From Escherichia coli O157:H7 (GTDB taxonomy: Bacteria > Pseudomonadota > Gammaproteobacteria > Enterobacterales > Enterobacteriaceae), in NCBI RefSeq assembly GCF_013167455.1, contig NZ_CP038328.1: a stretch of DNA of 64,000 nt. One strand, written 5' to 3'. How positions within the stretch are numbered: the first letter of the stretch is position 1; each line of letters begins with the position of its first letter. The position numbers are program-made. Shown here in pieces: positions 6,501 to 9,500 of this stretch.

Positions 6501-9500
6501 CTGAATTTACGTGTTATCGGCGGAGATTATCATTACACAGCAGCGGGGCAACTGGCTCAACATGAAGACACTTCTACGGTGCAACTTAGCGGCGATCTGT
6601 TTAGCGGGCGCTGGGGCACGGATGGCGAGTGGATGCTTGGGATTGTTGGTGGCTACAGCGATAACCAGGGCGACAGCCGCTCGAGTATGACCGGAACTCG
6701 CGCCGATAACCAGAACCACGGTTATGCGGTTGGGCTGACCTCAAGCTGGTTTCAGCACGGTAAGCAGAAGCAGGGGGCCTGGCTGGATAACTGGTTGCAG
6801 TACGCGTGGTTTAGCAATGATGTTTCTGAACATGAAGATGGCGTGGATCATTACCATTCGTCGGGGATTATCGCCTCGCTGGAAGCGGGGTATCAGTGGT
6901 TACCGGGGCGTGGTGTGGTGATTGAACCGCAGGCGCAGGTGATTTATCAGGGCGTGCAGCAGGATGATTTTACCGCCGCTAACCGTGCGCGCGTGTCACA
7001 ATCGCAGGGTGATGATATTCAGACGCGGCTGGGTTTACACAGCGAATGGCGTACCGCTGTTCATGTCATACCAACATTAGATCTGAATTATTATCACGAT
7101 CCCCATTCGACGGAAATTGAAGAAGATGCCAGCACTATCAGTGACGATGCGGTGAAGCAACGGGGTGAAATAAAAGTGGGAGTCACGGGCAATATCAGTC
7201 AGCGAGTTTCGCTGCGTGGTAGCGTGGCGTGGCAGAAAGGGAGTGATGATTTTGCCCAGACGGCAGGGTTTTTGTCGATGACGGTGAAATGGTAATCGCT
7301 GTCTGACCATCACTATTGCTGGATGCGGCGTAAACGCCTAATCAGGCCTACGGAGAGCATTTGTAGGCCTGATAAGACGCGGCAAGCGTCGCATCAGGCA
7401 TTGGCGCGGTTGCCGGATGAATCCAAACAACAACCTCACTTATTCTGCGTGTGCAGCATATAGTTCACATCCACGCCGGGGCCGAGTTTAAAAGTATTAG
7501 TGATCGGGTTGTAATGTAGCCCGGTTATATGTCGCTCTTTAAGGCTTGTCTGATCTACCCAGCCCAGCAGTTCTGCCGGTTTAATAAACTTCTTCACATC
7601 ATGTGTACCTTTAGGCACCATGCGCAAAATATATTCCGCGCCGACTACCGCCATCAGCCATGACTTGCCGTTGCGGTTAAGCGTCGAGAAAAAGACATCG
7701 CCGCCCGGTTTCACCAGTTGCGCACAGGCTCTGACCACTGACTGCGGATCAGGGACGTGCTCCAGCATCTCCATGCAGGTCACCACATCATACTGCCCGG
7801 CATGTTTTGCCGCGTGCTCTTCCACGGTTTCCTGCACGTAATCCACCTGAATGCCGCTTTCCAGCGCGTGCAGCTTTGCCACCTGCAATGGCTCAAAGCC
7901 CATATCCAGACCGGTCACCGTCGCGCCTTCGCGCGCCATACTCTCGGCCAGAATGCCGCCGCCACAACCGACATCGAGCACCTTTTTGCCAAATAAGCCG
8001 CCAGCACGCTCGGCAATATAGCTCAGACGCAGCGGGTTAATGCGGTGCAGCGGTTTGAACTCACCTTCCAGATCCCACCAGCGGGAGGCGACGGCTTCAA
8101 ATTTAGCGATCTCTTCGTGGTCTACGTTATGGTTTACCGGCGATTTTTCGGCATTCATTGGCACTTCTACTCCGTAATTGGCAAGACAAACGAGTATATC
8201 AGGCATTGGATGTGAATAAAGCGTATAGGTTTACCTCAATCTGCGCGGCTGTGTTATAATTTGCGACCTTTGAATCCGGGATACAGTAGAGGGATAGCGG
8301 TTAGATGAGCGACCTTGCGAGAGAAATTACACCGGTCAACATTGAGGAAGAGCTGAAGAGCTCCTATCTGGATTATGCGATGTCGGTCATTGTTGGCCGT
8401 GCGCTGCCAGATGTCCGAGATGGCCTGAAGCCGGTACACCGTCGCGTACTTTACGCCATGAACGTACTAGGCAATGACTGGAACAAAGCCTATAAAAAAT
8501 CTGCCCGTGTCGTTGGTGACGTAATCGGTAAATACCATCCCCATGGTGACTCGGCAGTTTATGACACGATCGTCCGTATGGCGCAGCCATTCTCGCTGCG
8601 TTACATGCTGGTAGACGGTCAGGGTAACTTCGGTTCCATCGACGGCGACTCTGCGGCGGCAATGCGTTATACGGAAATCCGTCTGGCGAAAATTGCCCAT
8701 GAACTGATGGCCGATCTCGAAAAAGAGACGGTCGATTTCGTTGATAACTATGACGGCACGGAAAAAATTCCCGACGTCATGCCAACCAAAATTCCTAACC
8801 TGCTGGTGAACGGTTCTTCCGGTATCGCCGTAGGTATGGCAACCAACATCCCGCCGCACAACCTGACGGAAGTCATCAACGGTTGTCTGGCGTATATCGA
8901 TGATGAAGACATCAGCATTGAAGGGCTGATGGAACACATCCCGGGGCCGGACTTCCCGACGGCGGCAATCATTAACGGTCGTCGCGGTATTGAAGAAGCT
9001 TACCGTACCGGTCGCGGCAAGGTATATATCCGCGCCCGTGCTGAAGTGGAAGTTGACGCCAAAACCGGACGTGAAACCATTATCGTCCACGAAATTCCGT
9101 ATCAGGTAAACAAAGCGCGCCTGATCGAGAAGATTGCGGAACTGGTAAAAGAAAAACGCGTGGAAGGCATCAGCGCGCTGCGTGACGAGTCTGACAAAGA
9201 CGGTATGCGCATCGTGATTGAAGTGAAACGCGATGCGGTCGGTGAAGTTGTGCTCAACAACCTCTACTCCCAGACCCAGTTGCAGGTTTCTTTCGGTATC
9301 AACATGGTGGCATTGCACCATGGTCAGCCAAAGATCATGAACCTGAAAGACATCATCGCGGCGTTTGTTCGTCACCGCCGTGAAGTGGTGACCCGTCGTA
9401 CTATTTTCGAACTGCGTAAAGCTCGCGATCGTGCTCATATCCTTGAAGCATTAGCCGTGGCGCTGGCGAACATCGACCCGATCATCGAACTGATCCGTCA

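Follow-up and report, generated by a model that had tools for sequence, protein, structure and literature searches.

The 64-kb stretch of Escherichia coli O157:H7 DNA that we analyzed, referred to here as the window, almost certainly carries the single chromosomal gyrA of an O157:H7-type strain, encoding a GyrA that is fully intact, with a wild-type quinolone pocket and a gyrase target that we predict to be drug-sensitive. The features of the gene that bear on this reading are given below, with the means by which each was read in parentheses.

8305..10932, plus strand: gyrA CDS (DNA gyrase subunit A), starting with ATG at 8305 and comprising 875 codons plus stop (ORF list, translation)
8503..8622, plus strand: quinolone-resistance-determining region (QRDR), codons 67–106, all amino acids as in K-12 MG1655 (codon-by-codon table)
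8536..8565, plus strand: residues 78–87, the peptide quoted in a preliminary description of this DNA (translation, codon table)
8551..8553, plus strand: codon 83, TCG, Ser, wild type; S83L is TTG (direct reading, translation, scripted codon table)
8563..8565, plus strand: codon 87, GAC, Asp, wild type; D87N is AAC and D87G is GGC (direct reading, translation, codon table)
8668..8670, plus strand: codon 122, TAT, Tyr122 within AAMRYTE (codon table, motif search)
9982..10002, plus strand: GyrA box QRRGGKG, residues 560–566, in the C-terminal beta-pinwheel domain (motif search)
10336..10338, plus strand: codon 678, GAA, Glu, where K-12 has GAC, Asp; the sole amino-acid difference from K-12 (codon table, alignment to PDB 6rks)

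Over the site itself the DNA reads AAA TAC CAT CCC CAT GGT GAC TCG GCA GTT TAT GAC ACG (direct reading). Codon 83 (TCG, Ser) and codon 87 (GAC, Asp) lie exactly where the preliminary description had placed them, and direct reading, translation and a scripted table concur on both. While these codon coordinates hold, the span that it assigned to the region, 8539–8568, covers codons 79–88 and is thus shifted by one codon from the peptide it quoted, which corresponds to codons 78–87 at 8536–8565. This slip is the sole point in favor of dismissing the result as an artefact, be it of a wrong frame or numbering, of a paralogue such as parC, or of a second, degenerate copy of the gene, an explanation to which we give practically no chance. 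Against it stand the single uninterrupted frame of 875 codons and the alignment of the window protein to E. coli GyrA (PDB 6rks_A), in which residues 1–875 are aligned with no gaps and 874 of 875 are identical; because this alignment is gapless throughout, the residue numbering for Ser83 and Asp87 is fixed. The NCBIfam gyrA equivalog model TIGR01063 scores the protein at 1309.7 bits against a cutoff of 877 and NF004043 at 1258.7 against a cutoff of 902, whereas the parC_Gneg model reaches 581.5, under its cutoff of 628.9. A second copy is further disfavored by the distribution of gyrA, which was found in 5,425 of 5,426 complete E. coli genomes and is normally present as one chromosomal copy, and the canonical synteny around the gene (yfaL – ubiG, divergent – gyrA – yfaA), with its conserved ubiG-gyrA-yfaA order, likewise argues against an artefact. 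Wrong frame, misnumbering and a parC paralogue are ruled out by the ORF, the family-model scores and the 6rks alignment.

The paralogue ParC, the A subunit of topoisomerase IV, has a homologous N-terminal breakage-reunion domain (PDB matches). The window protein is unlike ParC in scoring under the parC_Gneg cutoff and far over the gyrA cutoff, and in possessing the GyrA box, a motif that tells GyrA apart from ParC. It also retains Tyr122, the catalytic, DNA-cleaving residue of E. coli gyrase. Given its 874/875 identity to the E. coli enzyme, whose structure and biochemistry are characterized, the protein probably introduces negative supercoils together with GyrB. Several ORFs run antisense within gyrA (8387–8662, 8467–9438 and others), and we treated these as mechanical by-products of the long coding frame.

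Having placed the two codons in an intact gene, we compared the gene with that of the quinolone-susceptible reference K-12 MG1655 (b2231, NP_416734.1; PDB 6rks), whose GyrA has the same length of 875 amino acids. Taking the QRDR as residues 67–106 (PMC9953508), we found that 40 of 40 residues match K-12, including Ala67, Gly81, Asp82, Ala84 and Gln106. Tyr122, the GyrA box and the codons at 83 (TCG) and 87 (GAC) are identical as well. Within the QRDR the two genes differ at four synonymous positions, all between 8554 and 8604 (codon 84, GCG>GCA; codon 85, GTC>GTT; codon 91, CGC>CGT; codon 100, TAT>TAC). A search for replacements relative to K-12 at GyrA residues 51, 67, 81, 82, 84, 106, 196 and 828 returned none, Ala51, Ala196 and Ala828 being as in K-12. 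The HPHGD motif occurs once in a six-frame translation of the 64-kb window, so chance is no issue here. Nothing in the sequence contradicts the gyrA genotype call.

Over its full length, the gene shows 35 nucleotide differences from K-12 MG1655 (98.67% identity), comprising 34 synonymous changes and one replacement, D678E. Residue 678 lies outside the QRDR in the C-terminal domain, which PDB 1zi0 covers over residues 535–841. We considered whether this lineage-fixed change in the DNA-wrapping domain alters the quinolone response or the supercoiling set-point, such that the allele would be wild type in its QRDR only. D678E appears among GyrA substitutions recorded after enrofloxacin exposure in a paper without a functional test (PMC11721436), a listing that amounts to a weak counter-indication to a susceptible allele. 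An effect of D678E is nevertheless very improbable in our judgment, since it is hard to reconcile with several observations. The residue sits in the C-terminal domain and the QRDR in the N-terminal domain; the substitution turns up repeatedly as a fixed trait of particular sequence types, both alongside S83L/D87N and in their absence (PMC10638923); an allele differing from K-12 by D678E only was carried by 152 fluoroquinolone-susceptible isolates and 1 resistant isolate in a large genotype–phenotype set (PMC7067475); and the change is common to all O157:H7/O55:H7 gyrA genes identical to the window copy. Domain position, recurrence, susceptibility counts and lineage presence together indicate that D678E is a lineage polymorphism, a conservative Asp-to-Glu change. 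No resistance-associated replacement was found outside the QRDR, the lone change there being D678E, and alleles with D678E only were seen mostly in susceptible isolates (PMC7067475).

Quinolones bind the gyrase–DNA cleavage complex, and mutations at Ser83 and Asp87, the commonest cause of target-mediated quinolone resistance, break a water–metal ion bridge (PMC9953508). In the published mechanism, the C3/C4 keto-acid of the quinolone chelates a non-catalytic Mg2+ in the cleavage complex (PMC9953508), and the waters coordinated by this Mg2+ hydrogen-bond to two residues of GyrA helix alpha-4, Ser83 and Asp87. Where both residues are present the bridge can form, and the drug then stabilizes the cleaved complex and blocks religation. 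It is because Ser83 and Asp87 are intact in the window that we predict this strain's gyrase target to be drug-sensitive. ParC has an equivalent Ser/acidic pair anchoring quinolones (PMC9953508).

We next consider how far the genotype speaks for the strain. The term "susceptible genotype" used in the preliminary description is sound for the gyrA locus, with Ser83 and Asp87 in place and QRDR residues 67–106 as in K-12, and the label is limited to that locus. The gene content of the window extends from nrdB to yejB; parC, parE, gyrB, marR, acrR and soxR all lie outside its gene lists. Searching the 64-kb window for plasmid-type quinolone-resistance genes (qnr, aac(6')-Ib-cr, qepA, oqxAB) yielded none, and a broader quinolone-related search of the window returned just general loci, namely micF/ompC, the MFS pump bcr and yojI. 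Since parC, parE, gyrB, the efflux regulators and plasmid genes are outside the window, "susceptible" holds for gyrA only. A strain with wild-type gyrA might still be quinolone non-susceptible via determinants elsewhere in its genome, candidates being plasmid qnr, aac(6')-Ib-cr, qepA or oqxAB, changes in gyrB, and up-regulation of efflux via marR, acrR or soxR. All of these candidate loci lie beyond the window's gene lists, and resistant E. coli with qnrS1, qepA, oqxA or efflux alone and an unchanged gyrA have been tabulated (PMC4841292). We regard such a strain as quite improbable here, given that 152 of the 153 isolates with the D678E-only allele were susceptible (PMC7067475). The genomic island found in the window, described below, also speaks against it, as its proteins gave no PADLOC defence-system match and no resistance gene figures among its Pfam and PHROG matches. 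So does the usual gyrA-first route to resistance: gyrA S83L is ordinarily the first step towards high-level quinolone resistance in E. coli, and plasmid, gyrB and efflux mechanisms on a wild-type gyrA produce low-level shifts only. The unmutated primary fluoroquinolone target constrains the resistance genotype, making high-level target-mediated resistance unlikely without a gyrA change, and from the genotype we would expect a quinolone-susceptible strain.

To place the allele among E. coli lineages, we counted a 33-mer spanning codons 78–88 in 5,426 complete E. coli genomes. Counts cover two synonymous backgrounds, and so are lower bounds and no census of E. coli:

Window 33-mer, wild type, GCA84/GTT85: at least 296 complete genomes
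Window background (GCA84/GTT85) with TTG, S83L: at least 8 complete genomes
K-12-type background (GCG84/GTC85), wild type: at least 657 complete genomes
K-12-type background with S83L and D87N: at least 331 complete genomes
K-12-type background with S83L alone: at least 73 complete genomes

Among the sampled rows, carriers of the window 33-mer were all O157:H7, O55:H7 or unserotyped. Over its 2,628 bases, the whole gyrA ORF is 100% identical to the gyrA annotated in many O157:H7 and O55:H7 genomes of E. coli, where it encodes GyrA WP_001281251.1 (for example PV15-279, EDL933-type genomes, CB9615) and is flanked, as in the window, by yfaL, ubiG and yfaA. S83L alleles of O157:H7 (for example AR-0427, Z1766, CEC13091) share the GCA84 and GTT85 background of the window and differ from it at codon 83, which is TTG (Leu) in place of TCG (Ser). 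With at least 296 wild-type genomes to at least 8 carrying S83L, Ser83/Asp87 is the default of the lineage and discriminates little within it, and the suggestion that the genotype would be useful as a strain descriptor fares poorly on this comparison. The synonymous markers GCA84 and GTT85 say more on lineage than Ser83 and Asp87 do, and the 33-mer acts as a lineage marker. A wild-type QRDR in an O157:H7-type strain is already known, textbook material and a routine output of resistance-typing pipelines; the record is modestly useful in practice and adds nothing conceptually.

Upstream of the gene we identified one candidate promoter element:

8252..8260, plus strand: TGTTATAAT, an extended −10 element of perfect sequence, lying 45 bases upstream of the gyrA ATG (direct reading)

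We regard this element as the putative gyrA promoter. A consensus promoter scan of the gyrA region left it out, finding no acceptable −35 hexamer, and the promoter/terminator scan gave two matches within gyrA, at or under shuffle expectation. The ubiG-gyrA intergenic region differs from that of K-12 by a single base, at 8240 (T, where K-12 has A).

In its first 25 kb, the window matches O157:H7 genomes at ~100%. The closest complete genome, that of strain 17B6-2 (O157:H7), is collinear with the window, and its differences amount to two SNPs and a 9,557-bp island insertion. Over the 52 kb before the island, the only SNPs are at 955 (nrdA) and 23966 (rcsB), both synonymous. The atoS-atoC-atoDAEB locus found in K-12 between rcsC and yfaP (~7.4 kb) is missing, with 197 bp at 20359–20555 in its place, and the O157:H7 genomes examined likewise show the ato-less gene order. 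Two genes are interrupted by in-frame stops: a yfaS-like alpha-2-macroglobulin gene (13412–17926) at 17330, codon 1307, and yfaQ (17927–19576) at 18719, codon 265. O157:H7 references annotate each of the two as a pseudogene, which yfaS is in K-12 as well. Small-RNA matches in this part of the window were as follows:

442–505, plus strand: naRNA4 match between nrdB and nrdA
23481–23557 and 23595–23671, plus strand: two naRNA4 matches between rcsC and rcsB
27332–27425, minus strand: MicF small RNA upstream of ompC (116.8 bits)

The island occupies 52293–61849 (9,557 bp), where strain 17B6-2 has an empty site, and its GC content is 47.6%, compared with 51.4% for the window. Two copies of a 17-bp direct repeat, TTTGGTCGGCACGAGAG, flank the island at 52276–52292 and 61850–61866, and all of its genes are on the minus strand. 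The features of the island and its insertion site are:

53181–54158, minus strand: capsid-family protein
54312–54938, minus strand: small terminase subunit
55945–57777, minus strand: D5-type primase
57759–58058, minus strand: DUF4222 protein
58378–59010, minus strand: Ash-family protein
58621–58708 and 58730–58806, minus strand: C4 antisense RNA / IsrK (Rfam, 77.6 bits / 66 bits)
59689–59895, minus strand: AlpA-like regulator
60392–61651, minus strand: tyrosine integrase
61852–61928, minus strand: tRNA-Pro(GGG), whose 3' end is the right-hand copy of TTTGGTCGGCACGAGAG, the insertion site

Judged by gene layout, the island is phage-satellite-like, resembling a PICI or P4-like satellite with features of the kind described in PMC6092414. 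The C4 and IsrK matches overlap the mechanical ORF called as Ash-family. This stretch resembles the c4-icd-ant immunity module of the P1/P7 type, and in relatives it is annotated as Icd-like and Ash-family genes. None of 5,426 complete E. coli genomes carries the whole island. The best match, in O111:H11 strain 88-19539, shares the tRNA site and covers 90% of the island at 95% identity, and the segment 58420–59278, which differs from 88-19539, recurs at 99.9% identity in other E. coli genomes. Because none of the complete genomes holds the entire island and this segment is found nearly unchanged elsewhere, the island is a new mosaic assembled from known modules. As a strain descriptor it is far more specific than the gyrA QRDR.
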